Shown piece after piece: positions 5,401 to 52,110 of a stretch of 64,000 bases of DNA. The position numbers were made by a program, and so were the translations under genes. Position 1 is the stretch's first letter. Every line of letters starts with the position of its first letter. Source of the stretch: Raillietiella orientalis (Eukaryota). The notes under the pieces were generated by a model. The model searched no databases, was not told where the DNA came from, and worked only from the letters and a program-made list of their open reading frames with translations. The DNA is taken from positions 1 to 64,000 of the forward strand of contig JAYWIR010000147.1 in the NCBI GenBank assembly GCA_036172245.1. The letters are read 5' to 3'.

Positions 5401-7690
5401 ATCTCCTGGGAGTTCTCCGTGGTGATCACGTGGATCTCCTGTAGGAGCGCCAGGTCGAAGTCACGTAGGCTGGCGGCCGTTTCCCGCGTGTTGCCGTTGT
5501 CGCGCTGCCCGTTTATGTTCCAACAGACCACGCGTTATCGACAGCGACAGGCAAGCCCAGTTGTTATCTTTCGGAAAGTGACAATGCGGCGCCCGTCACC
5601 TGGTCGGGCGGGACGGATGGAAGAATGGGGCCTCCGCGCACCGGTTCTTTCTCCTCCATGGGAGCCGATTCCTCATCGGACCGCAACGGTTTAACGATAC
5701 GGGTCTCACGCACCTACTCCCCCTCTTTCATGGGGGCGAATCGTCGGCTTGGCCGGACGGCAGGTGGGAGAGGTGTTGAAGTCTCTGCTCCCCCTTCTCC
5801 ATAACTATCTTTTTTACAGCAGGACCCGGCGGTGGAAGGAGGAGGCAATGTCCTACCTGATCCCCTTTCTCCATGGGAGTCGCCAGCTGCTCGATAGTGG
5901 TGGGTGGGAAAATCCCTCCCTCCGTTTCCACGCTACCGGCTTCCCCCTCGGCTGCCGGTGCGTCTCCCTCCTTCTTCGTCGGCACGCGCCTCTTGGGACT
6001 CTTGGACTTCCGTCCAGTCTTCTTCGGAGGCGCCTCTGCGGAGGAAGACGCACTTCCGTCATCCGGATTCTGGTCATCTGTCGGTGGTGCCTTGTTCGCG
6101 GCCGGCCTTTTCAAAGCCTTTCGCGCGCCGTTCTCACGGTAGGCGAGATCGGTCGCGGGTTCTTCCGCCCCCTGCTCGAAGGCGGCGTCCTCTATTGAGG
6201 CGAGCGCGTCGCTCGGCTTCCCCTCAGTTTGCACAGAGGGTTCGTCTAACGTGATTGCTGCTTCGCCGGCAACGAGGCGGAGGATATCTCCCCCAATGGC
6301 GGTCTCGGAGACCTCCACGCTCTTCAAAGCGACCGAACATTCGCAGAGCATACGGCGGCGTTGCCTCCTATTTAATGGAGTTTTCGCGGGTTGCGCTGTC
6401 GGCTCTTCGGTTTTCCAAACGTTTTTGCTTTTCGGCTTCGCCGACCACCAGCCCTCGTTTTCACCAGCGTCGTCGGGAGTTTTCTCGACCGGCGTTCCCT
6501 AGGAGCCTTCGGGCACAAGCTTTTGGCTTTGCCGCTCTGTCGGCTCATTAGACTTTCGCGCTTTCTCCAAGCGCTTCCTTTTTCCTTTTTTCAAGGCAGA
6601 GTGCGCTGGAGGTTCCCACTTTGGTCACACTTTCCGATGATAACCCTTCTCCTCGCAGTGGAAATACTGTATGTGAGGGCACCGTTTTTTCAGGTGCCCT
6701 GCTGCATCACAGTGCGCACAGTACTTGGTCTTGCCCACGTACCAGACGTCGACGACCTCGTTGCCGACGTCGAGTTTGTGGGGCATCCCACCGTTTTCAT
6801 GCACGGTCACCCGCGCTGCAGCCATGCCACTGAACAGTTTTCCGTATGTTTGAAGATGTTCGGCTTGGTCCAGTGCGCGTGCACCGTACCATGTTTTTGC
6901 AACTCTTCCTGCACGCCAGCTTTGGTCATGCAAAAGTTTACACTGGTTAGGTGAGCAACAATGGAGCGATCCTCCGTTACAGGGAAGACCTTTCGGCCCT
7001 CCAGAGTGATGGAAGTGTTTAGCAGGCGCTGAGCCAGGCTTGCATCTTTGCAAGTCAGCTTCACCCGCTGGCCCCCACTCATCACGGAGAGACCTTCCAG
7101 TTCTTTTTCTTTTACATGCAGCCGCTGTAGCTTTCTTTTGAAATTTCGAGCGGTGTTCCCAACAAAAAGGTTGCCATACTTTCAAATCAAGGATGGTTTA
7201 TACCCTTGATACCGGTAAGCACACTGTTGGGCAATGGCTTTAATGGATGGTGCTGCAGCTACGGCGCTCCAGGTCTTCGTCGTTGCCGAGGAAGGATCCA
7301 AAGATGCGGTTGCCCTTTGTTTCTAAAAGGTTGTTGCTCCTTTTTCCGGTGTGGCGTTTGTCCTTGTATCCAAGAAAACGATTGCACTCTTTTGCACGGG
7401 GACAGTTGCTCGCTTTTTCAAGGGTGCGGTAGCCTTCGTTTCCAACGGGACGGTTGCCCCGTTTTTCAAGGGGGCGGTTGCCCTCGTCTACGTGGGGGCC
7501 GTTGCCCCAGCTCTATGAACTGGGGAGAGGAACAGGCATCTCCCCCTTCGATCTCCAACGCGGTGTTCTGTCATTTCTGACATTGGACACAGCAGATGCA
7601 CCACACACAAACACTAACGCAACGAAAGGCTTTACAACAGGCACAGAGGAGCGCGGAAAAAACACGTTTGCCCGCCAAGATGCTCGTTGC
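5401..7690 (-). mobile_element. LINE family A-like, 5' part (disrupted ORF1 and start of the APE endonuclease)
   Basis: ORFs 6625..7185 (CAHCDAAGHLKKRC) and 5728..6351; WNxNG..LLQEIH endonuclease motifs at 5401-5530. Confidence 0.85.
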
Positions 7691-7696
7691 CACGCT

Positions 7697-9061
7697 GTCA
7701 CGCCGGGGCGTTTATTATAAATTCTCTACATTGTGGTACAAAGCCTCACTAGGGCCAACTATAGAGGACCTGCGGGGTTGCCGGTACGCAGACTGTCGCG
7801 ACTCTCCTCGGCAGCGTAAGGGGATAATGGAAAAACAAAAAGAAAAATAAAACATGAAAAACAAAAAGATTTCGGAGGAATGGGAAGGGATCACCGTCCA
7901 CTGGGATTGGGGTCCATCCTTTGCAGGATGCCCTCGAGGTCCATCCGTATAATTCCCAGGTGGGGCCATCTGGTCGCAGTATGCAGGTAGCGGAGCGCAA
8001 GTACGACGGCATATTTGTCGTGGCTAGGTCTTCTGACGTCGCTCCAGCATGTCACCATCCCGCGGACGCTGCAAAGTGCAGCCAGGGCAGCGGCGGGTCG
8101 CAGGGCATCCTGCACGAACAGAAGCCAAAAAACGTCTCTTGGCTGGCTGCCCTCCTGGATCCGTAGGGAGGAACGAAGACGTTCCCACAGGGGTCGGGGG
8201 GCAGCACAATCAACAAGGAGGTGGGGGAGTGTTTCCCGCTCCCCACACCTAATGCAGGCCGGATCTACTCGACCCCTGGTCCAGTGGTGGCGGCGTTCTT
8301 TGCAGGGTTGGCCCCAATGCAACAGGAGAAGCGCTCACTCCTACCACTTTAGGGGGAGGGTCCTCGAACCAATGAAAACCGGGGGCCAATCCGGTCATCC
8401 GGCTACATGCCGAGCAGCTCGCCACATCTTGTAAGTCCTCTCGTCTGCACACTAGGAATAGTTGCTTCCGCCAGTTCCCCGATGGAACAGCCGCTCATGA
8501 ACTTCTCCTTGCCTGCAATGCGGCAGGAGACTTGCCACTTAGGCTGGCGGCTGCTGGAGAGCGCCCTTCTCCAGAATGGCATCGCCGTAGCTGGGGAATT
8601 GTCTCTGCCCACGTGCTTCTCGCGGGATACCGGAGTATCTTCCCCAGAGTGCTGCGGAAATAGGCGCCGCGTCGCAGGCACTTGCACATCTCTTCGTTTT
8701 TTTCATTGGTCTTCGCCCACATCCCAGCTGTCTCCTCCAGCCATGCAGAGGAGTTGGCGTGGCTGCACACCATCCAGCCGTTTTCCTTAGCCAGAGTTGC
8801 CATGCGTACCAGGAGAAGTCCGCATTTCTTGATCTCCGAGCCACGGCATAGAAGATGAGACGCGAGACCCTCCGTCCCGGATACCCTCACTTCTATGGGA
8901 GGAAGGGAGCAAGTCGCCTCTCCTCCTCCAATTTCCATCGCGGTGTCGTCAGGCATTTCTGACATGGGATGCCGGCGCTCCCACACACCAGACAAAACTA
9001 CGAACATCCTTTTTGCTAACTAGAGCGCGGTGCGATGACAAACCACGTCCGCTTCCTAGAA
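7697..9061 (-). mobile_element. Internally deleted or chimeric LINE: family A 5' end (about 8890-9061) fused to an ORF2 C-terminus and 3' end
   Basis: ORF 8495..9007 reads from the ORF1 N-terminus (MSEMPDDTAMEIGG) into post-RT ORF2 sequence. zf motif CIRCGERETLPHLL. Truncated 3' motif at 7697-7716. Confidence 0.75.
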
Positions 9062-9075
9062 GGACACGGGGAAGT

Positions 9076-10956
9076 TCTCACCTAGTCACGCCGGGGCGTT
9101 TAATAATAAACACTGTACATTTTCCGTGCTAGGCCCCGCTAAGTCCAATATTTCATAGGACGAGTCAGAAAGCTGGTTCACTGACCGGCTTGATTCTCCT
9201 CTGCAGCGGAGGGGCTAGGGGCTAAAGCAACAAGTTAAATGAATGAAACAAAGAAAAAGAAACATTTTTCAAAAGCCAGGAAGGGATTACAGCCCGATGC
9301 TGGAAAACAGGATTTTCCAGGATTCCCACGAGTTTTCTCGTCATGGCTTATAGATGGAACCAGCCGATCGCAATTCGCAGGTAGCGACCAGCGTGATCGA
9401 TGAAGTCCATATCCCTTCTTCCTCTGTTGGCTGTGCTTAACCCAGCTACAATCCCTCAGAGTCAGCAGTGCGCTGCCAGGGTTGATGCTGGTTGCAGGCC
9501 GTCTCGCACGAAGTGGAGTCTCACAACTTCTGTGGGGTTACTGCCAAACGGTATCCGGAGGGTCGTAGCAAAACGTTCCCACAGGGTCCGGAGGGCAGCG
9601 CAGTACAGTTACAGGTGGGGGAAGGATTCCTTCTCCCCGCGCACTGTACAGTTCTCTCCCACGTTCCTCAACGTCCACTGGTGGCGGCGCGCGTTGCAGG
9701 GAAGCCCTCAGTGCAACAACAGGAGAGCAGTTTCCTGCCACTTTAGGGGGAGGGTGGTTGCGTGTCTAAATCACAAAGGCCACTTTAGGTCATCCAGTGA
9801 AATGCCAAGCATCTCGCCCATCACTGGATTCCGAGCGGGAGAACGCTTGGAGTCGCGGCGTCAGCCAGTTCCCTCATGGTCCACCCACTTCTCCTTGCCC
9901 GCTATCCGGCAGATAACTTCCCTCCTCGGTTTCCGGCCGCTATGAAGCGTCATTCTCAGAAAGGGCAGCGCCGTGGTCAGTAGGATCGTCTCCTCCCGCG
10001 TGCTTCTAGAGGGACCCCCGATCATGTTCCGCAGCTTACCGTCGATGTAGATGCCGGTACAAAGGCGTTTGCAAGATTCTTCAATAGGCTGCATTAACTT
10101 AGCTCACGAGCCAACTGTTTCTTCCATCCATGCGCTGGAGATGGCGCAGCTGCAGGCCATCCACCCGTTCTCTTTTGCCAAGATGGTCATGCGTCCCGGA
10201 GAAAGCCGCATTTTCTGCTTTTCCGGCTGGAGCACAGAAGAGACGTTAGTCCTTCAGTACGGGACAAACGTCTGGCAATGAGGTGGGTCAGAACGCACCA
10301 AAGGATGCTCCACATTTTTGCTGCGATGGCGAGGGTGTGCCATCGCAGCTGTTTTGTTACGCGATCTTGCGTCAGGACGCTAAAATCTACGTCCCGACGG
10401 GGAGCTCAGAAATCCTCCATAAGCACAAGAGGCCTTCCACCGCCGCACAGAAGGATGCGCAGGAGGTTTTTTGTTCTCTTTTTCATCTCATGGGTTACGA
10501 GCAAACAAAAGCAGGGAGCGATTCAAGGGGACGGGAAACGCGTTCCACACCGCTGCCCATTCCTGCAAGTAGAACTTGCCTTCCAGGAACAGGCCGATCG
10601 CCGACTCCACTTTCTGGAGACGACCTGATCAGGCTTCTGACTGGCAGAATTCGTCCACTGGAACGCCGAAGTACTTCAAGTACCTCTTCTTGGATATCCA
10701 CAAGCGGAACCAATGAGATCATCCTGCCCACGTTGCACCAACCGTAACCAGCGGCGGATTCGCCCTGTTCGTCCGTAGTCCTGTACCGCGGTTCAGCAAG
10801 TCGAAAAAATCCTTGACTGCCAAAGCCGAGTCTGACATGCCTAGCAGGAGCAGAGGATCGTCAGTATACGCCGACACGGCCAGCGCACCTGGGCACGAGC
10901 TTGGTAGTGCAGCCAATGTCAGCCTGTATGCTCTCAACAGCAATTCGAAATAGGTG
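9076..10956 (-). mobile_element. 5'-truncated LINE 3' part (RT C-terminus, zf-RVT, 3' end)
   Basis: AYTDD motif, CTVRGEKESFPHL, 3' motif at 9076-9103. Confidence 0.85.
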
Positions 10957-12514
10957 GCAGCAGGCTCCTAAGCTGCTCATGTTCTGGAACGTGGTAGAGA
11001 CGGTGGCGCTACCACCTTTTCAATGTTCTTAGTATCACAGGAAATAGGCTCTTTCTTGTACCCGAATGGGGAAACGCTGTGGAAGCAACTTTGTTCAAAA
11101 CTTACGAATGCATGCATGCAAACGTGAATGGCCCGAGGGACACGCAGAAAGCCACAAGGTCACTATAATCAAGTTTCAAAACCTCTCCCAGAGGAAGGCA
11201 GCCTCATAAAACCACATCACGTCATTTTGCGTTCAGAGGTTGCAGACATATCCACCAAACAGCGCCGATCTGGGGCATTGGAGATAAGGAAATGTCGGCA
11301 ACAACCGCGTGATTTTAAGTGAGCTACGGCCGTATCATCTTCACGGACGCAATAATACTACGATTTTGAACATCCACGTTCTCGGGAAGGAAATGTTGTA
11401 GACAGAACACCCAGAAGTACTCTTGTAAACCCAAGAGTAGAGGTCCTACTCTAGAACGAAGATGCATGCCAGTCATACGACGTTGCTTTCTTCGACTTCC
11501 GAGGATGACTCACGTGCAGCCCGAACGCACCCCGATTTGGTGCTTTCTCCTCTACCTCGCCTACATCGGCTGCACTCCCTTCCCAGAAAGGAGGCGAATC
11601 CACTTACTGACTCCATGCATGCGCCTGATTTCTGTAGAACTCTTGAGCGCCCCCGTGTGCCTAACGCGCTCAGCTCCTCCACCACAATAGCACTCTGGGG
11701 ACGTCAGCTGCATGGCAAGAGTGCGACCGCTAGTCGCACTCATGCGTCAGTCATCGGCGAACCCCCTTCTTCCCGGATACCACAGCGCATCGTCACCACC
11801 GTCTTGCCTCCTGGCGAACTCTTTGCTCCCTTTGCGTCGAGATCAGCACTTAGGGCATCAGCAAACCTAGTTCGCGCCCTCACCTCCCACGCGTGTCCTC
11901 GTGACACGAAACCGGAGATGCGTCACCCTACTGCCTGCCAGGAAAGATTCGGTGCCTAGCGAGCGCATCCCCTGACACCTGAATGAGCAATCCCCAGCGT
12001 AGGGAGACAGCGGATTGCGCTCGCTTTCGCCTCTGGCAGGGTGGACGCAAGACTCGAAACGCTCGCCCGGTGGATGTCTATAAAAAGTCCACTCGGCGCG
12101 CATGCCGCATTACCGTCGGCAGTTCACCTAATCGGTCGTGCGATCTCCTCAGCTGCGGGTTATGCAACTGCTTCAGCGGCTCGCTTCCTTACGAGGAGGA
12201 GGCAAACTGGAAAGCAAGTGATCGTAGCAAACACGCGCAACCAGGTGGTAACGTTTTCAATGTGTGTGCGGCACTTTCACTGAAACCACGTTTTTTCGCA
12301 CCCAGTTTCGAGTTTCGTTGCCATAGCGAGGTCACGATTGTTGGCCTTTCCGAGCGTGTAGCCTCCTCTACCTAGGCCGTTTTTTGGCCCCATTTTTGGC
12401 CGCTCCCAAGACGGAAACACAAATCCTTGAGTGCAAAGACTTGTCTTCTTGCGTACATGCCCCTCGGAGTTCGCGTTCATCGCCTAGATCTCGCCCTCAG
12501 GCCTCAAGGTCGTG

Positions 12515-14086
12515 ATGGCATCGGAGGTGGGTGACAGTGATCTCTGCTCGTGCAACTAGCGACTGATTTTTAGCAACGGACAACAGAGAATTCCATGCGA
12601 ATCGAGGCTCCTGCCGATTTCCCGCTTCTGTGCACATTGAAGAGAACCATCCGCAGCTTGTCTGTGCAGCACAGAAAGAGGCAAGCGGACATCGATGGAC
12701 TGCAGAGAAGCTCGAAGTTGCTGCACATATTATCCAGAAGAACGGTGAGAAAGCAGGAAGTCAGATCGGTATGTGGACTGCCGCCGGATGTGAGACGGAG
12801 GAGCGTTGCGGCGGCTGCTCTCACTCGTAAATAAGGATGTTCCAGGGGTTCGCAATAAAGGATGGAAGCCCCTCGGGGCATGGAACAAACCACAGAAAGA
12901 AGGCAGAGGATGCCCGCGCCACACCGAGGGAGGAGAACTGGAGGCAGCGAAGTCTGCGCATGATCGAGGACAACCTGGTGGAGGAAACGTGAATATATGG
13001 AGCTGAGAAGGTGGCGGTTGCGAGTTTCTGTCGTTGTTGTTCAGAAGTGCGGTCGTGGAAGAGTACGAGAGTAGCCTCCATGAGTTGCAAGAGAAGCGCT
13101 TGGCATGCGCGGGGAATCTCTCTCGAGTGCTCCAGGAGGAGATGGATCTGAACGTTGCCTACAGCGGCTTGCTGAAGAAGATCTCGGAAATCTCTAACGT
13201 TAAGGCGGAACAGTATGAGTTGTTTGCCCAAAGGGGAAGATTCTGGTAAGTCCGCTGCAGGCTGTCACTTGAATGGCTTTCAGCTTGTTGCAGGAACACA
13301 GGTTGTGGGAGAAAGAGTTGGCGGTCTGGATTTCCAGATTTCAAATGGCTGCCAGTTTAAGAATGGACACTTCGCTGTGGACGCATATGAGATTTATGCT
13401 CACATTGATCTCGCGCATTAAGGTTTCCACTGTGGGACACTTGAAACATAGTCTGTCAATCATTATTGATACTCAAAAGACATACAAGAATAAATTCACC
13501 CCATTTTTGGAAAAAGCATTAGCCGTGGATAAGATACAGCATCTCAGAACCATATGGCAAGCTATGGATGAAAATTCGCGGAGGTTAGCACGTCTTCTCC
13601 ATAACTTCTTCAACACATTCTTCACAGTAATATTTGGGGGATGCAATTGGCTACTGAGATCCAACTGTCGCAGAAAATTGTCGAAGAAAACAGAATTGCA
13701 TCCAGGAGGATGACTAGTTTGGAGAAAACGAATGAACAGGTGAGGGCAATCATGGCTGTTTTTCCAGATTTAAGTCGATGACATCTTTGCGTCCTTAGAG
13801 AGGCGACAGGAACGATAGCCTCCTGGAGGAACTGGAGCACTTGAGGAATGTCCTTTCTTCGACACTTGGGAGACGATGGCGGCTGAGCCGTTCCTTGGTC
13901 GGTCTGCACGAATACAACCAGCTCATGCTGAGAATGTTCCATGCCTTGAGTGCTTGCAGAACTCCAAGGTGGGTGTGCCTTCCGCCGCTGGTTCATGCGC
14001 TTACGGTCTCCGGCAGGATAAAGAGCTCGTCGCGGAAGTATGCTGGCATAACCGCTGATGCGGGAGCGCTGCGCGAGAAACTGTAG
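12515..14086 (+). CDS. Predicted spliced host gene, about 399 aa, helical/coiled-coil-like, function unknown
   Basis: Exons 12515-12526, 12574-12768, 12846-12988, 13045-13245, 13284-13626, 13674-13739, 13799-13968 and 14017-14086. Seven GT..AG introns of 38-77 nt join the track ORFs 12595, 13034, 13273 and 13841 into one frame. The termini are uncertain. Confidence 0.65.
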
Positions 14087-14379
14087 AGATTTGCCGGACG
14101 AGAAGCCGAGCACGAGAATGAGGTATCACGAGATGTTCGATCACTTCAGAACAGCTTTCCAAGGATACCTTCGGAGCAGCTCCTCCATCAATAAAGTGAA
14201 ATGACGGCTGAACCTTAAACCGAAAGGTGAATTGTTTTCTCGGACCAACTGGCCCAAGCTGCTCGGTGACAATTCATTCGCTATCGTGCCACCGAAATGG
14301 GAAATTCGAAGGGGAATCTGGCGTCTACGGTGTTGGTTGAATGCTGTGATCTCGAGTTTGACACGTTGATACTTGTTTC

Positions 14380-14716: not shown

Positions 14717-15328
14717 TTTCACCTGGTGAATCCGGAACGTTTATTATAAACCTTCCGTACTTGCGATACAAGGTCCCGCCACGGAAAAAAGGGCGACGGA
14801 GCTGCCGTATGGTCGGTGCGGAGACTGACTTGACACTCCACATGAGCGGAGAGGGATGGGAAAAACAAAAATAAAAATAAAGGAAACTGAAAACACAAAA
14901 CCATAGTTCTTTGGACGGTCAGGAAGGGATCACTGTCAGCTGCGTGGAGTAACCATCCTTTGCAGGATGCCCACGAGGTATTTGTGCAGATTTCCCAAGT
15001 AAGGCCATCAGTGTGCTATTCGCAGTAAGCAAGCTGCATACTCCAAGACAACACTTCCGTTAACATCTTCTGCTTCGACGGATTTTACTCCAAGCCGCTA
15101 CAATAACGCGGATGCAGCTGAGCGCTGCTACCACGATGGCTGGCTACAGGGAGTCCCGCAAGAAGTAAAGCCAAGTAACGTCTCTGGGAGGGCTACCTTC
15201 CACGATCCCTATGGTAGTACTGCAACCTTTCCAAAGAGTGCGGAAGTCAACACAGTCCACTATGAAGTTCCGAAAGTATTCCCGTACCCTACACCTGGCA
15301 CAGTTTGGATTCAATCTTACTTGTGTGC
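14717..15328 (-). mobile_element. LINE 3' fragment (zf-RVT to 3' end)
   Basis: Similar to 34731-35339; 3' motif at 14717-14745. Confidence 0.8.
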
Positions 15329-17316
15329 TTCTAGTGAGTGGACATGGTTTGGCATCACTCTGCGATCTAGTTAGTGGGAAGCTTTTTGGTGGTTTTGTCT
15401 ATTGTGTGGAAGAGCCGGTGTCCCATGGCAGGAATGCCTGAGAAAACCGCGATGGAAATTGGGGAAGGAGAGGTGACCTGCTGTCCTCCACCCATAGAAG
15501 TGGGGGCATGCTCCCCCACGTAATCCAGGGTACATGCCTCATTGCAATCGAGGGCAACCGCACCTTCGCGTAACTCTTCGCCAGCGGCGAGGAGTTGGAG
15601 TACCCGTCGTTAGTGTACCATCCACGGTTGCAGGTGCGGAGCGAAATGCCTACAAGAACAGCGGTTACAAACCGTCTCTGTTCTGAAAGTTAGGCAGTGT
15701 ATTTGATGAGAAAATTGCGCGCTCCTTCTAAATAGAGCTGCCAAGGTTCAATGTGAGGAAGGAAGACCTTGAGGGCCTCTTCGTCCTCAGTGGGGGACAG
15801 GGAGTGCAACTAACCTGAAGGGAGGAAAGTCTGGCGCAGCGCCTAAGGAACACCTCCAATCGGTGGACAACCGCGGGATCTTCCATGTGATAAAGGACCG
15901 CTCCGTCGTGGTCTACCTCACAGGCTTGACACTTCGATTGGGCAAGACTGGAGTCCATGAGGAGTTGGCAAAACACGGTAATGTGCACGAGTATTGGGCC
16001 AAACTTGATGTCTTCCGAACGTACGGAAGGCTTTTCGGTGGGATGTCCGCTGCCCGTGTTACAATATTAAACAATGGTGCGCTTCCGCACAAACTAAACA
16101 TTGACGAAGAAAAAGTCGATGTTTGCTACGTTGAAAAGCCCAAGTAGTGTAGCGATTGCGATGCCACATGACTCTTGAAAAACCGATGCCTCAACATCGA
16201 ATGCCACTTATGCGGAAATAAAAGCCACATTTGTTAAGCGTTCCTTAGGAAAGGCATCCCGCTCTCACCTGATGCCAAAAAGGAAAAGAATAAACCGGGG
16301 GGAGAAGGCTATTCCTTGAAACAGGCAAAGGATGTCAAAAGACAGAAGCCAGTTTTTTAACACTCCTAGTAAACGTCAGTTGCGGAAACACTCTACGATG
16401 CTGGTAATTGCGCAGGCTGGCAGACGGTACAGCCTCCATAAAGACCGGTGAATCCCAAACGAAACGCGTAGAAAAAACCATGCTGCCAAAAACTCGGCGT
16501 GTGTTCGGTGACTTTAGAGCGTGTGGGGGTACTCGATGCCGCCACCGGGAGAGGTTTTTCCTACTTCGCGTTTGCCAAAGCCGCGACGGACAATGCCGAA
16601 CCCTGTATTTGTACAGAGAAAGAACCGCGTTACGCGCTCGACGCGATCGAGGAGGCCGCTTTCCAAAAAACGGTGGAAGAACTCGCGGCTGAGCTGCAAA
16701 GCCGTGATAAGAAATTGCAGAAATCTTAACGAAGGCCGGCTGCGAGGAAGACTACGAAGGTACGTGAGGCCGATCCGGATGCCTTAAGGGCGTCTTCCGC
16801 GGAAGCGCCACCAAAGCAGACGACACGCAATTTCCAGAATCCCAGGAGGCGCATCCGGACCAACAAGGAGAGGGATGAACCGACACCCAAGGAGAAAGCC
16901 GGCAGCGTGATAGAGGAGGTAGAAAATCTCTCAATCTCCGACACCGTGCAGCTGGAGACCCCCATGGAGAAAGGAGAGCAGGTGAGCGAATACCTTCTTC
17001 CTCTGCATGGCCCTACAGACGATTCGGGACCAATGGAAGAGGGGTAAGTGGTGGACGACAAACCCCCTTCTTCTAGCGTCTTGCCCGACCAGGTGGTGGG
17101 AGTCCCATTGCCACTTTCCTAAAACTAGCAACAGTGCTCGCCTGTCGCTGTATGATCCGCGAAACCTGCTGGTTCTTCAACGGGCTGAGTGACGACAGCA
17201 ACAGGTGAGATACGACCAAAACTCTGCGTTAATTCGACGTGGCGCACCTGCAGGAGATCAGAGTGATGACTGCGGAAAACGTCCTGGAGATCACGAAAAT
17301 CTCAGAGGGTCGTATG
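15329..17316 (+). mobile_element. LINE family A, 5' part, heavily decayed ORF1 and start of the endonuclease
   Basis: TTCTAG.. 5' end shared with 35340 and 38410; ORF 15863..16147 is homologous to ORF1. Confidence 0.8.
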
Positions 17317-19394
17317 TTTGTCTCTTGGCTGCGACGGTGCGTTTATTACTAAACTATCCGGGAACAGAGTTCCCGAACAAAGGTCACAGAAGAGACGAAC
17401 TAAGTGAGGTCCCCAAAGCGCAGATCGGCATGACGAAAGTCCGGAAAGGGAAGGATGGGACCACAAATACACTTATAAAAAAATAAAAACAAAGATACGG
17501 GAGGGTAGTGTTTGGTAAGGCCGTTCGTTCTTTCCAGTACCGGCGATGGATGCCGGCGATCTTTCTCCTAAAGGATTCTGGAAGATCGGCCCACTCGGCA
17601 ACGGACGACATGTTCGCGCTAACTGAACCGCTGAGCTGATTAAGGATTGCCAGCTTCTGCAAATTTCGGTGGGCGTTGTCGATGGCACGGATGCAACAGA
17701 GCGTTGCAATGAATGCACATAACGACAGGCCGCCTGGCGTAATAAAGCGGCGCTTCAAGTCTTTTGCGGTGTCCAGCTGGTGCAGGATATTTAAGACCAG
17801 CCTCCGCCACAGTTCTTTAAGGACACCGTAGTCCAAGAGCAAATGGGGGAGCGTTTCCACTTCCCCGCACCGCTTAAAGATCAGGGAGACAACTCCGTAG
17901 GAAACACGTTTCGCCCGCTGGTTGGAGTGGAAACCCTAATGCAATAACAAGATGACGTGCTGTTTTCAGTTCACAGAAAACACAGAAATGTTCAGACACC
18001 AGGAAAGGACAACAAGTTCTTCGGGGAGCACACTCAAGTATTCACACCACCAAAGGATCATCTTCGAGATGTTACGAGGCGTGGCGGCATCTACCAGCTC
18101 ACTAGACTCCCAGACGCCTATGGGTAGTGTTGCTTCTGCAATGGTGCAGGCAAACTTTTACCTCATCGCTTGGCGAATGTCATCTCTTGTCCTCATGGCT
18201 CAGAGAGAGTCCGTGAGAGGCGTGACGGCCAGGCGAGTCCACTTCTCCTGGCTGTTGCACACCTCATCCACCGTGCAGTACATGAAGAGGTGAGCGCAAC
18301 GGAGTTCCAGAAGGGAAACATCCTGGTGCATTGCCCATCCATGCAACGTTTTCTGCAGCCATGCTTCAAAGTTTGTTGGGCAGCAGAAGATCCATTCCTT
18401 GGCTACCAGGAGCTGGTAGAGCGCTTTCATCCGGAAACCGAAGCTACTCGTGTCGAGCTCCGTATGCAACCCGAGCGACAGAAGTCCATCGCTGCCGTTG
18501 CAAAGCAGCAGCAGCAGGCGCGCGGGAGCGCGCCACGTAGTGGACCAAAGGTTGACACACAGGGCCAACATCCGAAGCTGCACCTGAAGCTCGATTCCCT
18601 CCTGCGCCATTATGCCTAAGCCTGCATCCCGACGCGGAGCCGCCAAGTCTTTGAGGCGGTTCGTGGACCCCGCAGGTCCCCACAGAGCGTTCTTCAACAG
18701 GCTGTGCGCCCGGAGTATAGCCCAGAAGGGAAGCGAACAAACAAAAACAGGGAGCGCAAGAGGGGGTCAACGATGGTGTTCTATATCGCGGACCTCCGAG
18801 AGGAGGAACTTGGCATGGTGGAACGGGCTCGGAGTGCTCGTAGGCTTCCGAAGGCAGTTTGAACACACTTCCACTGCGCTGATGTTCCTCAGAGGAATGC
18901 AGAGATATTAAGAGGACGGAGCGGTAGGGATCCCCAGGCGGATCCAGTCGGACTGCCTCGCCCACGCCGCACCAATAGAAACAACCCCGCCCTTCCTTCG
19001 GTATACGCTCATGCCCGCTTCACGGCGAATCACCTCGAAAAAAGTTTCGAGAATGGACGCCGGGGTGGTCGTGGGTAATAAAAGAAGCAGATAGTCGGCA
19101 TAGGCCGCCACGGAAGGCGTTCATGGACAAAAACACGGCAAGCTGGCCAGCGTCAGCAGGTACTCCATCAGAAAAAACTCAAAGAAGATGCTGAAGAGCA
19201 ACGGAATTGAGTCTTCTCTTTGCCTAATGCCTCGCCGCAATAGAACGCCGCACACGTGCCAGCCGCGAAAGGAGGTAGAAAAGACCGCGTGGCGCCAGCA
19301 AGCGTGCAAACAGGCCAAGAGGTGTACAAGAAGGCCGAGGCGTTCCAGGAGCTTCAGGAGGATACCCTCATTCACGCAGTCGTACGCCTTATGC
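17317..19394 (-). mobile_element. LINE family B, 3' part (RT KAFD to 3' end)
   Basis: ORFs 19121..19375, 18908..19111 (AYADY), 18200..18697 and 17384..17860. The 3' UTR matches those at 23076 and 49542. Confidence 0.85.
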
Positions 19395-30827: not shown

Positions 30828-32180
30828 TTTTCACCCGGTGACGCCGAAACGTTTATTAAAAAACACTTTACATTTGCGGTACTAGGCACCGCTTCGGCCA
30901 ATATTTCATGGGACCTGCCAGGAAGCCGGTTCTGAGGCCAGCTTCTCCTTCTCAACAGCGGAGTGGATAGGGGGTAAAAGAAAAAGAAGTATAAATAAAA
31001 TAACAAAAAGAAACTATTTTGAGGGCCGGGACGGGATCACAGCCCGCTAGAGAAGGGGACCATCCTTTCCAGGATGCCCTCGAGGTCCCTCGTCATAGCT
31101 TCCAGATGGGACCAGCCGATCGCCATTCGCAGGTAGCGATCCGCGTGTACGATGGGGTCCCTGTCGCTGCTTTCTCTGTTGGCTGCGCTCCAGGCGGGTA
31201 CAATCCCTCGGAGACAGCAGAGCGCTGCAAAAGTTGAGGCTAATGGCAGGGCGTCTCGCAAGAAGAGGAGTCTCCGTCTCTGGGGCCGACCGGAATAGGG
31301 AGGGTCGTAGCATAACGTTCTTACAAGGGCCGGAGGACAGCGCAGTACACTAACAGATGGGGGAGGGATTCCTTCTCCCCGCACACTGCACAGTTCTGTC
31401 CCACGTTCCCGAACGTCCAGTTATGGCGGCGCGCGTTACAGGGAAGACCCCAGTGCAACAACAACAGCGCCGTTTTCTGCCACTCGAGGGGGAGGGTGGA
31501 AAAGTCTTTGAACAACGGGGGCCACTCCAGGTCATCCGCCTGGATGCCAAGCAGCTCGCCCCATCTTATTCCATGCGGGTGAACGCTTGGGGTTGCGGCG
31601 TCTGCCAGTTCCCTCATTGTCCACCCGCTTAGATCCTTCTCCTTGCCCGCTATCCGGCAAGAGACTTGCCATCTCGGCTTCCGGCTGTTTTGAAGCGCCC
31701 TTCGTAGGAAGGGCAGCGCCGTGGCCAGTGGAGTCTTCTCCGCCCAAGTGCTTTTGGCGGGACACACGATCATGTTATGCAGCGTGCAGCGGGTGTAGAT
31801 GCCGGTGCGCAGGCGGTTGCAGGATTCTCCACTGATGTGTTTCAACTTTGCCCACGTTCCAACTATTTCTTCCAGCCATGCGCAGGAGTTGGCGGGGCTG
31901 CAGGCCATCCACCCTTTCTCCTTTGCCAGGGTGGCCATGCGTCCCAGAAGAAGTCCGGATCTTCTTATTTTCCGGCCGGGGCACAGAAGAAAAGACGCAA
32001 GTGCTTGAGTCCCGGACACACGTCTGGCAAGAAGGCATGCTGGAACGCAGCAAGGGGTGTTCCACATTTTCGCTGCGATGGCCGAAGTGCGCCACCAAAG
32101 CTGTGTTTCCATTCGCTCCATCGTCAGGACGCTAAGACCTCCGTCCCGACGTGGAACGCACAAATCCTTTAAAGGCACAC
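30828..32180 (-). mobile_element. 5'-truncated LINE 3' part
   Basis: ORF 31321..32178 with CAVCGEKESLPHLL; 3' motif at 30828-30857. Confidence 0.85.
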
Positions 32181-32860
32181 GACACGGGGAAGTGTAGATG
32201 CTGATTGCCCAGACTGTGGGCTAAGAGCAACCTTTCCTCACTTGATCGTCGAGTGCGTTGCCCTTCGCGATATGTGGGACCGACTCTCGTCGTTCTTGAA
32301 CATTCCGCGGGGCGACCCGAAGAACATTTTTCGACTCCTGATGCGGGACGCCTTGCTAGCTTCCGGGTGTGTAGCAGTGCTCTGTTGCATACGCGCAACA
32401 CTGGACAAGTGGACCGCGTCAAGCAGAGGACATGCCAGTCGGAATGCCATCCACTGGGCAACCATCTCCTTGGAGGAGGCCTGCTGTTGGCGCCGACTAA
32501 GAAAACACTTACAGGCACTCGTCCGCATCCGTGACCTATGCAGAGGCCTCCTCACGGCGTACCCTGATTCCTTCCCTTCCCTACCCCCCTTGAAGTACAT
32601 TGCCCTCCCAGGCGTTTTCTTTTTTTTTGTTTATTTTTGGTTTTCCCTTTGCCAGTGTAGAGGACCTTATCGGCCTTAGGGTCGGTAAGGACAAGTGCCT
32701 CAAGACAGTCGGGCCATATGTCCCGACTTGAAAAACAAAAACAACAACTACAACAACAACAAAAAAAAAACAAAAACAAATGATGACTTTATGATGAAAT
32801 TTTTTTTGTTTATTTTGAAAAATTTTAATAATAAGAGCACTGGCTCACCCGGATGAAAAA
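32181..32860 (+). mobile_element. LINE 3' fragment (zf-RVT to 3' end)
   Basis: TRGSVDADCPDC; ORF 32242..32679; variant 3' motif at 32830-32860. Confidence 0.75.
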
Positions 32861-34730: not shown

Positions 34731-35339
34731 TTTTCACCCGGTCAAGCCGGGGCATTTATTTAAAAACTAACAGTATTCGCGGTACAAGGCCCCACTACGG
34801 CCAATAGTCCTATGGAGCTGTCTGGTGGTCAGTGCACAGACCGACATAACACTCCACGTCCACGGATGGGGTTAGGGAAAAAACCAAAATAAAAAAAAAT
34901 ACAAAGTAGAAACACTTGTCATTGAGGGGGCCGGGAAAGGTTCACTGTCCGTTTTGTGAAGCTTCCATCCTTTGCAGGATGCCGACAAGGTCCTTCTGCA
35001 GATTTCCCAGGTGGGAACAACGGGATGCTAATCGCAGAAAGCGAGCTGCATACTCCACGGCATTCCTTCTGTTAGCATCCGCTGCTTCATCGGATCCACT
35101 CCAAGCGGCCACAATACCGCGTACGCAGCAGAGAGCTGCTATAACAGCGGCTGGCTGCAGGGCGTCCGGCACGAAGAGGAGCCAAAAAACGTCTCTGGGA
35201 AGACTACCTTCCAAGATCCCTAAGGTGGAACCGAAACGTTCCCACAGGGGCCGGAGGACAGCACACTCAAGTAGAAGGTGCGGGAGGGTTTCCCGCTCCC
35301 CGCACAGGGCACAGTTTTCGTTCACACTTCCTTGTGTCC
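34731..35339 (-). mobile_element. LINE 3' fragment (zf-RVT to 3' end)
   Basis: CALCGERETLPHLLLEC; 3' motif at 34731-34760. Confidence 0.85.
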
Positions 35340-37798
35340 TTCTAGAAAGCGGAGGTGGTTTGGCATTGCTCAGCGATCTGGTTAGCTTGAAGGTTTTCGG
35401 TGGTTTTGTCTGGTGTGTAGGAGCACCGGTGTCCCATGGCAGAAATGCCTGACGACACCGCGATGGAAATTGGGGGAGGAGAGGCGACTTGCTCTCCACC
35501 ACCCATTAAAGTGGGGACGCCCGCTTTCACGGAATCCGGGGCACTTGCACTATCGGAATCGGGAGCAGCCGCCCCTTCGCCACCCTCTCGCCAACGGCGA
35601 GGAGTTGGAGTGCCGTCGTTGCTGCACCATCCCCGGCTGCAGTAGCGGAGCAGACTGCCTACAAGAGCAGTCTGCTCAAACCGTTGCTGATCTATAACGT
35701 AGGCAGTGTGTTGGACGAGAAAATTACACGCTTCTTTGAAATGGAGCTGCAAAGACTGAATGTGAGGGAGCAACACATCGAGGGCATATCCGTCCTTAGT
35801 AGGAGACAGCAAGTTGAGCTGACATGCAAAGAGGCAAGTCTGGCGCAGCGCCTGCTAAACACCCCTATTACGGTGGACGGCCACAGGATATTCCCTGTGA
35901 CGGAGGACCGCACCGTCGTGGTCCACCTCACGGGCGTATCACTCCGAATGAACAAAACCAGCGTCCATGAGGAGTTATTAAAGCACAGTAGAGTGCACGC
36001 GTATTGGGCCAAACCCAAAGTCTCCCAAACGTACGGAAGGCTATTCAGTGGGATGGCCGCTGCCCGCGTCACACAACCGGAGAATGGTGGGTTTCCCCAC
36101 AAACTAAATATCGGCGAAGAAAAACTCGATGGTTCCTACGTGGGAAAGCCCAAATATTGTGGCCATTGCGATGCTACAGGGCCCATAAAAAAACGGTGCC
36201 CTAACATCCAAAGCCACTTATGTGGAAACAAGGGCCACATCCGCAAGGTGTGCCTAAGAAATTCCGTTCCCTCCCGCTACCAAATAGGCAAAAAGGAAAC
36301 GCGCGGGAGAGACGAATACCATGAAGCAGGCCTTAAGGGGTCAGATCCCAGTCGCTAAGGCATCCCAGCAAACGTCGGTTGAGAGCACTCCCGACGACTG
36401 TGGCGAGGGCGAAGGCTGGCAGACGGTACAGCCCAGAAGAAAGCTCTGGAGTCCCGAACGAAGAGCGGGGAAAACAAAAACGCAGCGCGAAAAACCGTGC
36501 CGACGAAGAGCGAGGGGGACGCACCGGCAGCCGAGGGGGAAGCCGGCAGCGTGGGAACGGAGGGAGGAATTTTCCCACCCTCCGCCACCGAGCAGCCGGC
36601 CACCCCAATGAAGGAGGGGGAGCAGGTAGGGCATTGCCTCCCCCTTCCACCGGTGGAGCCTGCGGAGAAGATAGTCATGGAAGAGGGGGAGCAGACAGCT
36701 GAGAACCGCTCCCCCCTGCCGTCCATCGCAGTCGAGAAATCGGCCCACATGGAAGAGGGGAAGCAGGTGCGTGAAGCATGCTCCCTTCAACCGTTGCGTT
36801 CCGCCGAGGAATCGGCCCCCATGGAGGTGGGAGAACCGCTGGGCGGTGCCCCCATGCCTCCATCCGTCCCGCCCGACCAGGTGGCGGGAGCCCCATTGCC
36901 ACTTTCCCAATATTAACACCTGGACTCGCCTGTCGCCGTAGGATCCGCATAGCCTGCTGGAACGTCAACGGGCTGCGCGACGACGGCAACAGGCGGGTTA
37001 CGGCCGACACCCTGCGCGACTTCGACCTGGCGCACCTGCAGGAGATCCACGTGATCAGCGCGGAGAACGCCCAGGAGATCGAGAGGATCGCAGGGGGTCG
37101 TCGGTTTTGGCAATGCGGCGCTCGCAACGCCTGTTGCGTGGCCTTTTTTATGGAGACAGCAGTAGCCGCCTTCGTAAAGGACGTACGCTTCGACAACGAC
37201 AGTCGGGTTGGCCAGCTCATCCTCAGGTGGTCCGACTTGATCGACCTAGTCGTGACCAATGTGTATGCTCCGAGCAGAGGATACGGGTACAGGGAACGTT
37301 CCCGGTTCCTCGAAACCCTGAAGCGCGACTGGCTGACGGATACAAACGTACGCAAAGTGCATCTGATCGGTGGGGATTTCAACATCCGCCTGCTCTCATT
37401 TTTGCCTTGCGGGCAAAAAGACGCAGCCAACGAGCTCTGCGCTGCTATGCGCACGCGTAACTTGTTGGGGGACCTACCGGAAATGGTCTAAAGCGTAGAC
37501 CACGTCTTCCTTGACGCCGACCTGTGCTTACGGGTCGGCAGACGAGGGAAACTTCCGTCGACGCTATCGGACCATTTCCGGTTGATATTCGAGGTTATGC
37601 CTCGCGACGAAGGACCACCATCCAGGGCGTGGCGTCTGCCCGGGGACAGGATGCGCATCTTAGGTGCGGCGGAACATCTTTGCCAAGTACTGGGAGGCGT
37701 CATCCTCCGGAATCTCCAAGACTGGGACCGCATGAAGGCCTCGGTCCGCGATTTCTGCGAGAAGTTTCCTGACCACCGCCTGCCCCGGGGATTTGGTG
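35340..37798 (+). mobile_element. LINE family A, 5' part: disrupted ORF1 (35436-36916) and APE endonuclease
   Basis: WNVNGL, LQEIH, NVYAP, GDFN and SDH motifs. Confidence 0.9.
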
Positions 37799-38409
37799 TT
37801 GCCACACGGATACGCCCTGTGCGTTTATTGAAACTCTACAAAAACGTGGTACGAGGCCCCACTAACGGCCGCACAACACCGGAACTGCTGGGACGCCGGG
37901 ACGCAGCCCTGCGTGACGCTCTTCGGCAGTGGAGGGGACTTTGGGAGAAAACAAAAAAAGAAAAATAGAATAAAAAAAAACAAAAGTAGTTTGGAGGCAG
38001 GGGAAGGGATCACTATGCACTAGGAGGAGGGCTTATCCTTCGCAGGATGCTCTCTAGGTCCTTCTGCGTTTGTCCCAGATGGGGCCATCTGGCAGCTCTT
38101 CGCATGAAGCCCACAGCATACGGGATGACTTCCCTCTCGTTGGCATCCACTCCTTCGTCGCAAATGTTCCTCAAGGCCGCTACGATGCCCGGATGCAGCA
38201 GAGGGCTGCAAGGGCTGCGGCGGGCTGCAGGGCGTTTCGCACGAAGAGGGACCGAAAAACGTCTCTGGGCGCGCTGCCCATTGGGAGCCCGAGGGTCGTT
38301 TCGAACAGTTCCCACAGGGACCGGATGGCAGCACACTCAACTAGAAGGTGAGGGAGCGATTCCCGCTCCCCACACCTGGCACACTCAGGGCTTACACTTC
38401 ATCGCGTAG
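37799..38409 (-). mobile_element. LINE 3' fragment (zf-RVT to 3' end)
   Basis: CARC zinc-finger remnant, RWPHL..DLESILRRI C-terminus, variant 3' motif at 37799-37829. Confidence 0.8.
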
Positions 38410-40129
38410 TTCTAGGGAGCGGACGTGGTTTGGCATCGCTCCACGGAATGGTTAGTGGGAAGCTTTTCGTTGGTTGTCATGTGTGTGGGAGTACCGGTGT
38501 CCCATGGCAGACATGCCTGAGGACACCGCGATGGAAGTTGGAGGAGGAAAAGCGACATGCTCTCCTCCACCAATGAAAGAGAGGGCATCCGCACCCACGG
38601 AATCCGGGGCACTTGCCCCATCGGAATCGGGGCAACCGGCCCTTCGCGAGCCTTTTCGCCATTGACGAAGAGTTGGAGTGACGTCGTTGCTGCACCATCC
38701 CCGGATGCAGTAGCGGAGCAGACTGCCTACAAGGACAGCGGCTACAAGCCGTCTCTGATCTATAAGCTAGGCAGTGTGTTTGATGAAAAAATTGCACGCT
38801 CCTTCGAAATGGAGCTGCAAAGGTTGAACGTGAGGGAGGAAGACCTTTTAGGCCTATCCGTCCTTAGTGGGGGCAAGCGAGTTGAGCTGACATGCAAAGA
38901 GGCAAGTCTGGCGCAGCGACTGCCGAACAACCCTATTACGGTGGACGGCCGCAGGATCTTCCGTGTGACGGAGAACCTCTCTGTCGTGGTACACCTCACA
39001 GGCGTATCACTCCGAATGGACAAAACGAGCGTTCATGAGGAGTTGTCGAAGCATAGTAGTGTGCACGCGTATTGGGCAAAACCCAATGTCTTCCGAACGT
39101 ACGGAAGGCTATTTAGTAGGATGGCCGCAGCCTGCGTCACCCTACCAGAGAATGGTGGGCTTCCCCACAAACTGAATATCGGCGAAGAAAAAGTCGATGT
39201 TTGGTACGTGGGTAAGCCCAAGTATTGTGGCCATTCCGATGCCACAGGGCATCTAAGAAAGCGGTGCTCTAACATCCAATGCCACTTATGTGGAAATAAG
39301 GGCCACATCCTTAAGGTGTGCCCAAGAAGTGAAATCCCGCCCCCATCCGCTGCAAAAAAGGCAAAGGGGAAACGCACTGGAGATACGCATAAACAGAAAC
39401 AGGCTGTAAACACCCAGATGTTAGTCCCTAAGCCCTCACAGCAAACCTCGTTTAAGAACACTCCCGACGACGATGGTGACGGCGAAGGCTGGCAGACGGT
39501 ACAGCCACGAAGAAAAACCGGCAGTCCCGAACGAAACGCGTTGAAAACAAAAACGCAGCGCGAACAACCGTACCGCGAAAAGCTCCGCGCGTGTGCGGTA
39601 ATATTAGAACGTGTGGAGGCACCCGTTGCCGCCGCCGGGACTGCAATCCCTTCCCTCGCGTCCGCCGAAGCCGCGACGATCGATGGTGAACCCACTGGCG
39701 AAACAGAGGGGGAACCGCGCGCCGCGCTCGACGCGATCGAGAAGGCCGCATTCCAGCAGGCGGTGGAGGAACTCACGGCTGAACTGCAAGGCCGTGAAAA
39801 GAACTCGCGAAAAGCTTTGCGAAGGCCGGCCGCGAGGAGGGCTCCGGAGGCAGGTGAGGCCGATCCGGACGTCAAAACTGCGTCCTCTTCAGCGGAGGCG
39901 CCACCAAAAAAGACGGGACATAAGTCTCAGAAACCCAGGAGGCGCATCCGGATCAGAAAAGGAGGCGCATGAATCGGCCACCGAGGGGGAAGCCGCCAGC
40001 GTGGGAGGCGAGGGTGGGAATATCTCATTCCCCGACACCGTGCAGCTAGCGACCCCCATGGAGGAGGATGAGCAGGTGAGTGAACCCCAATTTCCTCTGC
40101 GAGGCCCCGACGACGAAGCGTCCTCCATG
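38410..40129 (+). mobile_element. LINE family A, 5' part; ORF1 from ATG 38504 with frameshifts (main ORF 38557..39972)
   Basis: 471-aa ORF with zinc knuckles; homologous to 35436-36916. Confidence 0.9.
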
Positions 40130-49542: not shown

Positions 49543-51512
49543 CAGCCGACCCCCCGCGATCGTCTCTATTTCCTGGGCGTCTCCCGCGGTGATAACGTGG
49601 ATCTCCTGCAGCAGGGCCAGGTCGAAGTCACGCAGGGTGCCGGCCGTATCTCGTCTGTTGCCGTCGTCGCGCAGCCCGTTTACGTTCCAACTGGCCACGC
49701 GGATCCTAGGGCGACAGGCGAGCCCAGGTTTTATTCCTGGGAAATTGGTTCTGCAGCGTCCGCCACCTGTTAGGGCGGGACGATAGGTGGAGGGGGAGGG
49801 TCAGGTGCTGGAGGCACCTGGTCCCCCTCTTCCATGGGTAACGGCGCGTCAGCCGGTTCACCCTTAGGTGGGGTCGTGCCTCCCTGTTCTCCCTGCTCCA
49901 TGAGCATGGCCTGCTCGACGGCTTCCGTACGTGGGAATTTCAACTCCTGGTTTCTCACGCTGGCGTCAGCTTCCGGCTTCTCGTCCTCGCTCGTGGAGGG
50001 GAGGCGCCTCCTCGGTTTTTGGGACTTCCGTCCCGTCTTCCGGGTGGGTGCCTTTGAGGAGTGGGATGCACTTCCGGCCCCCAGGTCGTACACACTTTCG
50101 GGGTCCTTCTTGGGCGGAGCAGCCCTGCGCACTGCATTGCGTGAGGGGTTCTCACGCACGCCCAGAGTGACCGCGAGCTCCTCCGCTGCCTTCCCGAAGG
50201 CGGCGTCCTCGCCGTCGGAGTGCGCGTCGCCCGGCTCACCCTCTGTTTACACAGTGGGTTCGTCGTCCCGAACCTCGGGCGCGGCGGAAACGGCGAGGGG
50301 AGGCTCGTCGCCCCGGGTGGCAACCTCAGGAACGCTTACGCGATTCAGTGCTACCGAGCACTCCTGGAGTTTTTTTGACAGCCGCGCGGCTTTATTCTTT
50401 TTGCTGGCCGTGTTCGTTTTCTCCGTTTTCTTTAGTGGTTCTTTCACCACTTGTTCCTCCTTCCTGGCCTTTATCAGTTGCCTTCCCTCTTCCACTCCCG
50501 CGTCTTCCGCGGTTTCATCCAATGACGCCTGGGTGAGAGGAAGAGGAGATGGCGGCTCGGGCCGGCCAGTTTCTCGCTTAGGTCTTTTGACCTTGTTGAT
50601 TTTTTTGGCCTGCGCCTTTTTGGCAGCAGGTGGCAACGGGGTAGGGCGTTTAGGGCACACACGACGCACGTGTCCCTTAACCCCGCACAAGTGGCACTCA
50701 ATGTTCGGGCAACGCTTGCGCAAGTGCCCTACTGCATTGCAGTAGTCACAATAGCGGGGTTTCCCCACGTACCAGAGGTCGACGGATTCTTTCGCGACTT
50801 CCAGTTTGTGAGGCAACCTAGCACTTTCATTGACAGTGACATGCGCTGCAGCCTGGCCTCCAAAATGGCTAGAAAGCCTTCGAAGATGGTGGGCTTTGGC
50901 CATAACGCGTGTACATCTCCGTATTTCATCAATTCGTAATTCACCGCCGAGCGCGTCATCCGATTTGTGATTCCGGTTAGATGGACCACTACGAAGCGGT
51001 CCATGATAACCGGTAGGATTTTCCGGCCATCCACATTCAGCGGGGTGTTCATCAGGCGCTGTGCTAAGGCTACATCTTTGCAGACGACCTCCACGCGCTG
51101 CCCCTCGCTGAGTACGGCGAGGCCGTCAAGATCCTCTTCTCTTACAGGAACGTCCTGTAGTGCCTTACTGAAGGCTTGGGCGGTGCGACCATCAAACAGG
51201 GGTCCTATTTTGAAAACCAGAGATGGTGTTATATCCTGATGCCCTGTAAGCCGCTTGCTCCGCCTAGGTTTCCGCGCTCGGCGCGGCCACCATGGTGCTC
51301 CACTTCCTCGGCGTTGGCGAAGATGATTCCGAAACGGATGCCCCTTATCCAGTAAGCCGTCGGGAAGGACTATCCTTTCTCACGCCTACCTTTATCGTGG
51401 TGTCCTCTGGCAGCGATGCCATCGGACACCAACGATGTGAAAAAACACACACTTTCCAAGAAGAAACCGCTTCCCGGTACTTGTTGACGGAGAAACCGAA
51501 AAACACGTCCTT
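49543..51512 (-). mobile_element. LINE family G, 5' part: disrupted ORF1 (51422 to 49731) and start of the endonuclease
   Basis: CDYCNAVGHLRKRC and CHLCGVKGHVRRVC; WNVNGL..LLQEIH. Confidence 0.88.
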
Positions 51513-52110
51513 CCGTAACGAAAGGGCGTATTTGCACGCCCATCGTTTTTCGAGGACCCCTGACATCCGTCGCTTGACAGAGTACAAAGCCGAGGCCGAG
51601 CGTCAAGCCTGGCAATCCAAGCCGCCCAGCGTGCTGGACGACCTACACCAGGAATACTCGGACCCGGCATGGATACGTCGCTTCGTGCGTTAATTTTACT
51701 TCTCCCTTCACGCCAGGGTACCTGCGGAGTGGGACGTGTCGCGGAGCTTTCTCCCAAATGGAGCCTTGGCCATAGGGAAGGGAGAGAAAGAAAGCTTCGA
51801 CGAGCCTTTTACGACCGGAGAAATCATCACCGCTATTAAAAAGCTTAAGAGGCGTAAGGCGCCAGGGTAGGACGGCCTGCCGGCGGAGTTCTTAAAGAGC
51901 TTCGCGTCAGATCTGACCCCCCTGGTGCTCCAATTGACACGGCTGATACGAAACGAAGGCGATGTTCCCGCCTCGTTTTGGTAAGCCAGAGTGAGGCTCC
52001 GTCCTAAGGGAGGAGACCTTAGGAAATTGAGCAACTAACGTTCGATCACGATTGTGAACACGGACGCCAAGTTGCTGGCTGGACTGTGGGCTGCGCGGCT
52101 GGGACAGATG
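51513..52110 (+). mobile_element. ORF2 linker and RT N-terminal fragment
   Basis: RNERAYL..AERQAWQS..KAPG..TIVNTDAK. Confidence 0.75.

Follow-up and report, generated by a model that had tools for sequence, protein, structure and literature searches.

We describe here a family of retrotransposons that lack long terminal repeats (non-LTR elements), family A, that occupies part of a 64,000-nucleotide stretch of the Raillietiella orientalis genome (assembly GCA_036172245.1, contig JAYWIR010000147.1, positions 1 to 64,000; hereafter the window). Family A is probably a site-specific, antisense long interspersed nuclear element (LINE) of the apurinic/apyrimidinic endonuclease (APE) type that works like R1 or Tx1 and takes the zf-RVT-like codons of its relatives as its target. 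The window has a G+C content of roughly 56% and consists almost entirely of diverged non-LTR retrotransposon copies with mutual identities of 57–95%; all counts, trees and comparisons given below refer to copies within it. What we add is the family A site itself, a test that sets the divergence of hosts against that of inserts, and the analysis of a tandem joint.

A fixed join point in related LINEs

Full-length 5' ends of family A lie at 9061 (−), 15329 (+, located by alignment), 35340 (+) and 38410 (+), with the consensus TTCTAGrrAGCGGAsGTGGTTTGG, and a 19-mer from this 5' end has three matches in the window against 0.03 expected. When these four ends and one truncated copy are aligned with the sequences that they adjoin, five of five joins fall on one alignment column, all antisense to the host; as the partners comprise four full-length 5' ends and a truncated copy, the fixed point is on the host side. 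This point is internal to a Trp codon (T|GG) that shortly precedes the CxxC of a zf-RVT-like domain. Read in host sense, uninterrupted relatives have ...CAC T|GGACnnnnGGnAnnGT...TGY..TGYGG at this position, which corresponds to HWTxGxV..CxxCG (also written CAC T|GGAC), and such 'empty' target sites are present in five related copies. The interrupted joins read CTAGAA|GGACAC in host H_b and at a bare 14-mer described below, CTAGAA|GCACAC in H_a, CTAGAA|CTACGC in H_c and GGCACA|CGACAC at the join between the truncated copy and H_d.

The piece upstream of each plus-strand A 5' end is the complete 3'-terminal 610 bp (approximately) of an A-like LINE, in antisense, from the target site to the 3' end. 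These pieces are H_a (14717..15328, −), H_b (34732..35339, −), which has a weak zf-RVT match, and H_c (37803..38409, −), which is inserted into an A copy; each begins at the reverse-complemented 3' end TTTCACCyGGTsA..GCCGG..CGTTTATT, and their outer flanks differ. They adjoin, respectively, A_a (15329..17319, +), which runs from the 5' end and is cut at an APE-start site by an antisense R-type 3' end, A_b (35340..37802, +), which extends from the 5' end as far as the APE region (reference coordinate ~2671), and A_c (38410..40121, +), which runs from the 5' end and has an open ORF1 (open reading frame 1) of 483 amino acids (aa). The fifth join belongs to T30829 (30829..32179, −), a 5'-truncated copy of the A2 type whose 5' break is joined to host at the shared site: it matches its sister A2 up to 32179, and thereafter follows H_d (32180..32859, +), a plus-strand host from the target site to the 3' end that forms a clade with the element E1.

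Sites that have been hit read GGACAC(R)(R)GGAAGT or decayed versions of it, and unhit relatives differ; the presumed A tails, A2 and T30829, read GGACGTTsrGGAAC at the target, with 7 of 14 matches to the 14-mer. These differences, small in number, could reflect sequence-dependent targeting together with self-avoidance.

Separate histories of hosts and inserts

An inverted LINE tail with A attached might instead have moved as one unit, and we tested this by comparing the raw distances of hosts and of A inserts, their trees and their codon positions. For the pair b–c, the hosts differ by 206/602 (0.342) and the A inserts by 192/1158 (0.166; z = 7.9), and for a–c the values are 0.379 and 0.239 (z = 6.0). 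For a–b they are alike (0.282 and 0.256, z = 1.2), so both regions decay at similar rates, which provides an internal control. Differences between H_b and H_c are distributed over the codon positions as 0.28/0.24/0.40 (p = 0.007), a signature from which it follows that the hosts diverged as coding elements; those between A_b and A_c are nearly flat (0.13/0.19/0.17). Compared with other families, A shows strong codon periodicity, on the A strand.

In their own tree, the four A copies group as a star clade (terminal branches 0.22, 0.077, 0.081 and 0.13), and the tree of the 3' units has the form (H_d, E1), D, (A2, T30829), (A1_3p, H_c, (H_a, H_b)). The hosts are thus spread over two of its clades, (A1_3p, H_c, (H_a, H_b)) and (H_d, E1), with H_a and H_b in one lineage, H_c in another and H_d with E1 in a further one, and those that share the join nucleotide and the orientation are only 58–72% alike. 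As closely related A copies sit in hosts that diverged as coding elements, the joins of c, of d and of the bare 14-mer were made separately from those of a and b. Taken together, these comparisons indicate that the joins formed at least three or four separate times (at least three host lineages are involved, and the separate joins number four when the bare 14-mer is counted). A co-mobilized 'host piece plus A' unit was rejected for c and d, by the distance discordance and the clade of H_d, and not for a versus b.

An earlier note on this DNA had claimed that A 5' ends follow antisense host sequence at a common register before the CxxC motif and that a truncated element joins the same site, and both claims are borne out, the former by the single alignment column and the latter by the join of T30829 and H_d at 32179/32180. 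Its expectation that the hosts would prove to be of different subfamilies agrees with the alignments, in which H_a with H_b, H_c, and H_d with E1 are distinct lineages. Its argument for independent, repeated targeting holds for c and d, on distance discordance and clades, but not for a against b, which are not separated.

A bare target copy in a tandem joint

Between two minus-strand elements lies a bare copy of the target (9062..9075, +), which in host sense reads GGACACGGGGAAGT exactly and encodes (W)TRGS. On its left it adjoins an A 5' end in reverse complement (...CCTAGAA, up to 9061), that of A1 (8885..9061, −), which comprises the initial 177 bp of a family A element, has the 5' end TTCTAGGAAGCGG and falls in the A star clade. 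On the right, starting at 9076, follows the reverse complement of a LINE 3' end (TCTCACCTAGTCACGCC..CGTTTAAT), that of A2 (9076..10956, −), a 5'-truncated copy and the sister of T30829 in a clade supported at 100/99. The boundary between spacer and tail is ambiguous by 1 nt, so that the spacer measures 13–14 bp. It matches H_d at 13 of 14 positions and H_b at 12 of 14. With up to three mismatches allowed, the 14-mer has 14 matches in the window against 7.08 expected, and 1 of 100 shuffles yielded as many as 14; with up to two, it has three, at 9062, 32180 and 35326, all of them at junctions. Both types of junction occur in the A2/T30829 clade: one copy breaks off on its 5' side at the site (32179/32180), and the other has its 3' end at site +14 (9076). 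For family A, the putative 14-bp duplication is represented by this single tandem joint.

That nothing but the 14-mer separates the A 5' end from the next 3' end, as the earlier note had it, is confirmed. What it had named as refuting its claim, a 14-mer that is part of the A 5' untranslated region (UTR), is not the case, because the 14-mer also borders T30829, which has no UTR. As for its reading of the joint as a tandem re-insertion, this fits the R1 literature and a 36-bp analogue in sister families, but a matched duplication around one A copy is missing.

A 3'-terminal piece of an H-clade element (7688..8884, −), 1.2 kb long and running through the target site without a break, is joined directly to A1. 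The stretch 7688–9061 combines the 177 bp of A1 with the last 1,194 bp of an H-clade element, a tail that clusters with the hosts and not with A2 and T30829, and represents a copy with an internal deletion or else a chimera.

Sister families and head-to-tail joints

Other families in the window provide further junctions. Family D (40345–45938) is a closed antisense insertion in the KAFD codons of the reverse transcriptase (RT), with a duplication of approximately 16 bp (GTCGAACGCCTTGTGC / ATCGAATGCTTTGTGC), and the corresponding empty site is present in E1. R-type 3' ends lie at an antisense APE-start site at 17318, 23077 and 49541, with a fourth, at 5400, 25 nt off. The 5' end of Q2 joins the same APE-start site 33–36 bp further, such that the R 3' and Q2 5' junctions overlap by 33–36 bp; evidence for R/Q junctions in the window is also found at 53520–53565, alongside 17318 and 49541. 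In the tandem pair R3–Q, exactly this overlap, as a bare 36-bp target copy (23041–23076), separates the tail of R3 from the 5' end of Q. Judged from these junctions, the R/Q spacer has the same architecture as the A 14-mer, with a duplication that is defined independently by both junction types.

Family A may be pictured as one of a guild of sister LINE families whose endonucleases are each specific for a different coding motif of their relatives (Trp/CxxC in the zf-RVT-like domain, KAFD in RT and a pair of sites in APE). Insertion would always be antisense, and the families would reside in and inactivate each other, jointly giving rise to islands that consist of LINEs alone and spare host genes. 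We hold this wider picture tentatively, as having somewhat less than an even chance of being right.

Head-to-tail joints that lack a target copy and have 0–6 nt between the elements occur at 30827/30829, 27681/27682, 32859/32860, 7681–7688 and 14716/14717. They pair an intact LINE 3' end with the full-length or 5'-truncated start of the next element, which suggests template switching or a Zepp-like stacking of tails; tandem joints in this window can therefore also arise in another way than by re-insertion.

Proposed mechanism and alternative explanations

Under the reading that we favour, family A would integrate by target-primed reverse transcription at GGACAC(R)(R)GGAAGT, always in antisense, with the W-T-x-G-S codons just before the CxxC of the zf-RVT-like domain in related LINE copies as its target. 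The endonuclease would nick the host-sense strand after ...GAAGT (site +14), priming cDNA synthesis, and the other strand would be cut inside the Trp codon (T|GG), which would yield a duplication of 13–14 bp. The 14-mer at 9062–9075 would then be this duplication, which stayed behind between two copies when a regenerated target was hit a second time, as in R1 arrays. If this holds, A 5' flanks are expected to be antisense ...ACTTCCnnGTGTCC, and A 3' flanks to be ACTTCCnnGTGTCC followed by AGTGGTGGCGG-like antisense upstream host.

Several observations weigh against this reading. We examined ten A-like 3' ends in the window (9076, 7688, 14717, 26513, 27682, 30829, 32859, 34732, 37803 and 45922): host sequence beyond the 14-mer follows none of them, and target sequence follows one, that of A2, where it consists of the 14-mer only. 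The region upstream of the site has 14 non-self matches in the window, and in no case does the match begin or end at the site itself; the four 'other halves' of the hosts are thus absent from the window, where a closed A insertion, or a matched duplication around a single A copy, was not found either. The 5' end of A2 adjoins 3.6 kb of non-repeated DNA and not host, the 3' end of T30829 directly adjoins the truncated 5' end of E1 without a target copy, and the missing 3' part of A_c needs a later deletion. Junctions a and b are inseparable as independent events (z = 1.2) and may be one event. Lastly, it is from junction sequences that we infer the specificity of the A endonuclease, the 13–14-bp duplication and the position of the first-strand nick. 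The flank left of 30829 was considered as a target copy and rejected, as it has a slight likeness only and is the APE region of E1.

The alternatives differ in how much of the site specificity they retain. Family A could be site-specific and the 14-mer nevertheless derive from an A1 RNA that started 13–14 nt upstream, in the target flank of its donor, the RT having then jumped to the 3' end of an A2 RNA to make a chimeric cDNA. Template-switch chimeras have an architecture that resembles head-to-tail joints, at least five of which lack a target copy here (T30829 to E1, E1 to D', H_d to Y, A1 to X and H_a to X', the last two with 6 nt between), and the 5' end of A2 in non-host DNA is as expected if the whole chain was inserted once elsewhere. 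We nonetheless regard this as unlikely: the length of the spacer equals the expected stagger, as in R1, and the 36-bp R/Q spacer offers a parallel in which the duplication is independently defined. For the tandem joint, re-insertion is thus favoured over template jumping, with its origin less certain than the site specificity.

Rather less credible is the proposal that A has no endonuclease specificity at all and that A cDNA ends were captured by recombination or microhomology, or brought to their places by rearrangement within the LINE island. No 3' junction has been found at the site, deletions and fragments abound in the island, and the truncated join has a possible microhomology of 3–4 nt (CAC), all of which would fit; the four full-length joins, however, show no microhomology (CTAGAA versus host ...CCACT), the same nucleotide and orientation recur in hosts 58–72% alike, and the sister families have true closed insertions. 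The mobile unit introduced above, in which an antisense piece of approximately 610 bp would serve as an inverted LINE-tail leader of A and the joint would simply be inherited, is the most improbable of all, with very little chance of being correct. It would explain the completeness of the piece in every case and its exact start at the reverse-complemented 3' end with differing outer flanks, and why host and A distances are equal for a–b. It is contradicted by the discordant host and A distances of b–c (z = 7.9) and a–c (z = 6.0), by the coding signature in the divergence of the hosts, by H_d, a member of a different clade and the host of a truncated copy, by the bare 14-mer, and by the joint of the H_a 3' end to the X' 5' end, which repeats that of A1 to X and shows H_a behaving as a real element tail.

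Relation to known site-specific LINEs

The reading of family A as a site-specific antisense LINE finds its closest counterparts in R1 and Tx1, a comparison based on architecture. Drosophila R1 has a 14-bp target-site duplication and tandem copies separated by exactly those 14 bp; the tandems are explained by new insertions into the duplicated target 5' of a copy already in place, and 5'-truncated copies retain the same 5' junction site (PMC2718515). On that description, family A resembles R1, an APE-type element of arthropod 28S ribosomal DNA (rDNA), in its fixed site, the 13–14-bp spacer of the tandem joint and the constant 5' junction of a truncated copy; it differs in that its target is the coding sequence of sibling LINEs, hit in antisense, rather than an rRNA gene, and in that its putative duplication is seen at a tandem joint and not around a single copy. 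Target-specific APE-type LINEs are placed in the Tx1 and R1 clades, with transposons among the targets (PMC4640811), and it is this sequence-specific integration into repeats, transposons included, that family A has in common with the Tx1 clade. In the window, by contrast, the targets are ORF2 codons of related LINEs, and sister families each use a different site (KAFD, APE start, APE middle). Tx1L inserted in the Tx1D transposon is reportedly one example from the Tx1 clade.

Zepp clusters arise by nested insertion into existing copies, which yields tandem arrays of 3' ends (PMC8226300 and PMC3446292), and the head-to-tail chains seen here fit that description of the L1-type Zepp/ZeppL clusters of green algae. 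The accounts consulted describe one family per genome and mention neither a fixed codon-level site nor an obligatory antisense orientation. Full-text searches of the literature, whose coverage did not extend to supplements or the original Zepp reports, yielded no account of LINE families that aim in antisense at fixed codons of sibling LINEs.

Known landing sites of target-specific LINEs comprise rDNA, small RNA genes, telomeres, microsatellites and a few DNA transposons. A LINE that lands, in reverse orientation only, in a codon block conserved among its own relatives would occupy another niche: host genes would come to no harm, and every hit would also break the ORF2 of the host copy. Such a LINE would further provide a sequence-level mechanism for the growth of LINE-only islands such as Zepp-type clusters, and would make available for study a natural range of APE endonucleases that differ in their recognition sites.

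Element class and domain content

We searched 226 stop-to-stop ORFs of at least 110 aa against Pfam, and many of them carry Exo_endo_phos, RVT_1 or CCHC knuckles. The order of APE upstream and RT downstream that characterizes the LINE class is present, with PF03372 and PF00078 in ORFs of the same element set (for example, 57749–58729 (−), E = 6e-12, and 56704–57876 (−), E = 2.9e-16), as are 5'-truncated copies with an intact 3' end, a LINE hallmark (A2, T30829 and E1). Within family A, A_b has an APE match (Exo_endo_phos, 36775–37488, +, E = 5.6e-6); RT is found in none of the A copies themselves, because every one is interrupted before RT. ORF1 of A_c (38521–39969, +, 483 aa) matches no Pfam family at E ≤ 0.001, unlike the ORF1s of other families, which carry CCHC knuckles.

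The single zf-RVT (PF13966) match, at 34945–35505 (−), is below threshold (20.8 bits against a cut-off of 27.5, E = 6.3e-4). A tblastn match to residues 999–1054 of a 1,164-residue database protein annotated with PF13966 has 39% identity (E = 4e-5), and a CxxC...H...C pattern is visible in alignments of the zf-RVT-like region. The closest database proteins in a search with an RT ORF are 25–34% identical, many of them with APE, RT and zf-RVT domains; this protein search returned no same-species copies, only relatives at most 34% identical, and a metagenome scan for the A 5' motif gave zero matches. Family A is best explained as an APE-type LINE of the L1/Tx1-like kind, which would comprise ORF1, Exo_endo_phos, RT and a Cys-rich zf-RVT-like tail, and we take that tail to be a pointer to L1/Tx1-like elements rather than to R1.

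Interruption and nesting

A_a and A_b are interrupted elements and not random truncations, as they break off where other families insert recurrently or resume later. A_a ends exactly at the recurrent R-type 3'-end site. A_b stops at reference coordinate ~2671, and its probable continuation, K (51512..52105, +), begins at 2680 and is bounded by the full-length 5' end of the minus-strand element V. This suggests that 37803–51511 is one minus-strand element (H_c...V) inserted in the APE region of A_b and carrying A_c; a duplication is not evident at 37802/37803 or 51511/51512. The order of events would be a reciprocal nest, with A_b, then H_c...V inside it and then A_c inside that, in which family A and an H_c/V-type family appear to have hit each other within a short interval.

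We also considered the A pieces as variably 5'-truncated antisense passengers of a host-strand unit and rejected this: A_a ends at the recurrent R-type site, A_b resumes at K, A_c keeps its 483-aa ORF, and the periodicity lies on the A strand. Full closure of the nests failed for Z, D'', M and the 24556–26497 piece, and several joints need deletions or stay unexplained.

The 3.6 kb at 10957–14598, which adjoin A2, have no repeats elsewhere in the window and a lower G+C content, with no tblastx similarity to LINEs and no Pfam match in their ORFs; they are bounded by the truncated 5' end of A2 and a 118-bp 5' fragment of the X' type. Elsewhere in the window, the full-length 5' ends of W and Y2 (20776/20777 and 1665–1737) follow, in sense, the end of a D-type ORF1 module, with joints at reference coordinates 1412 and 1445, and coordinate 1406 also starts the piece at 26497.

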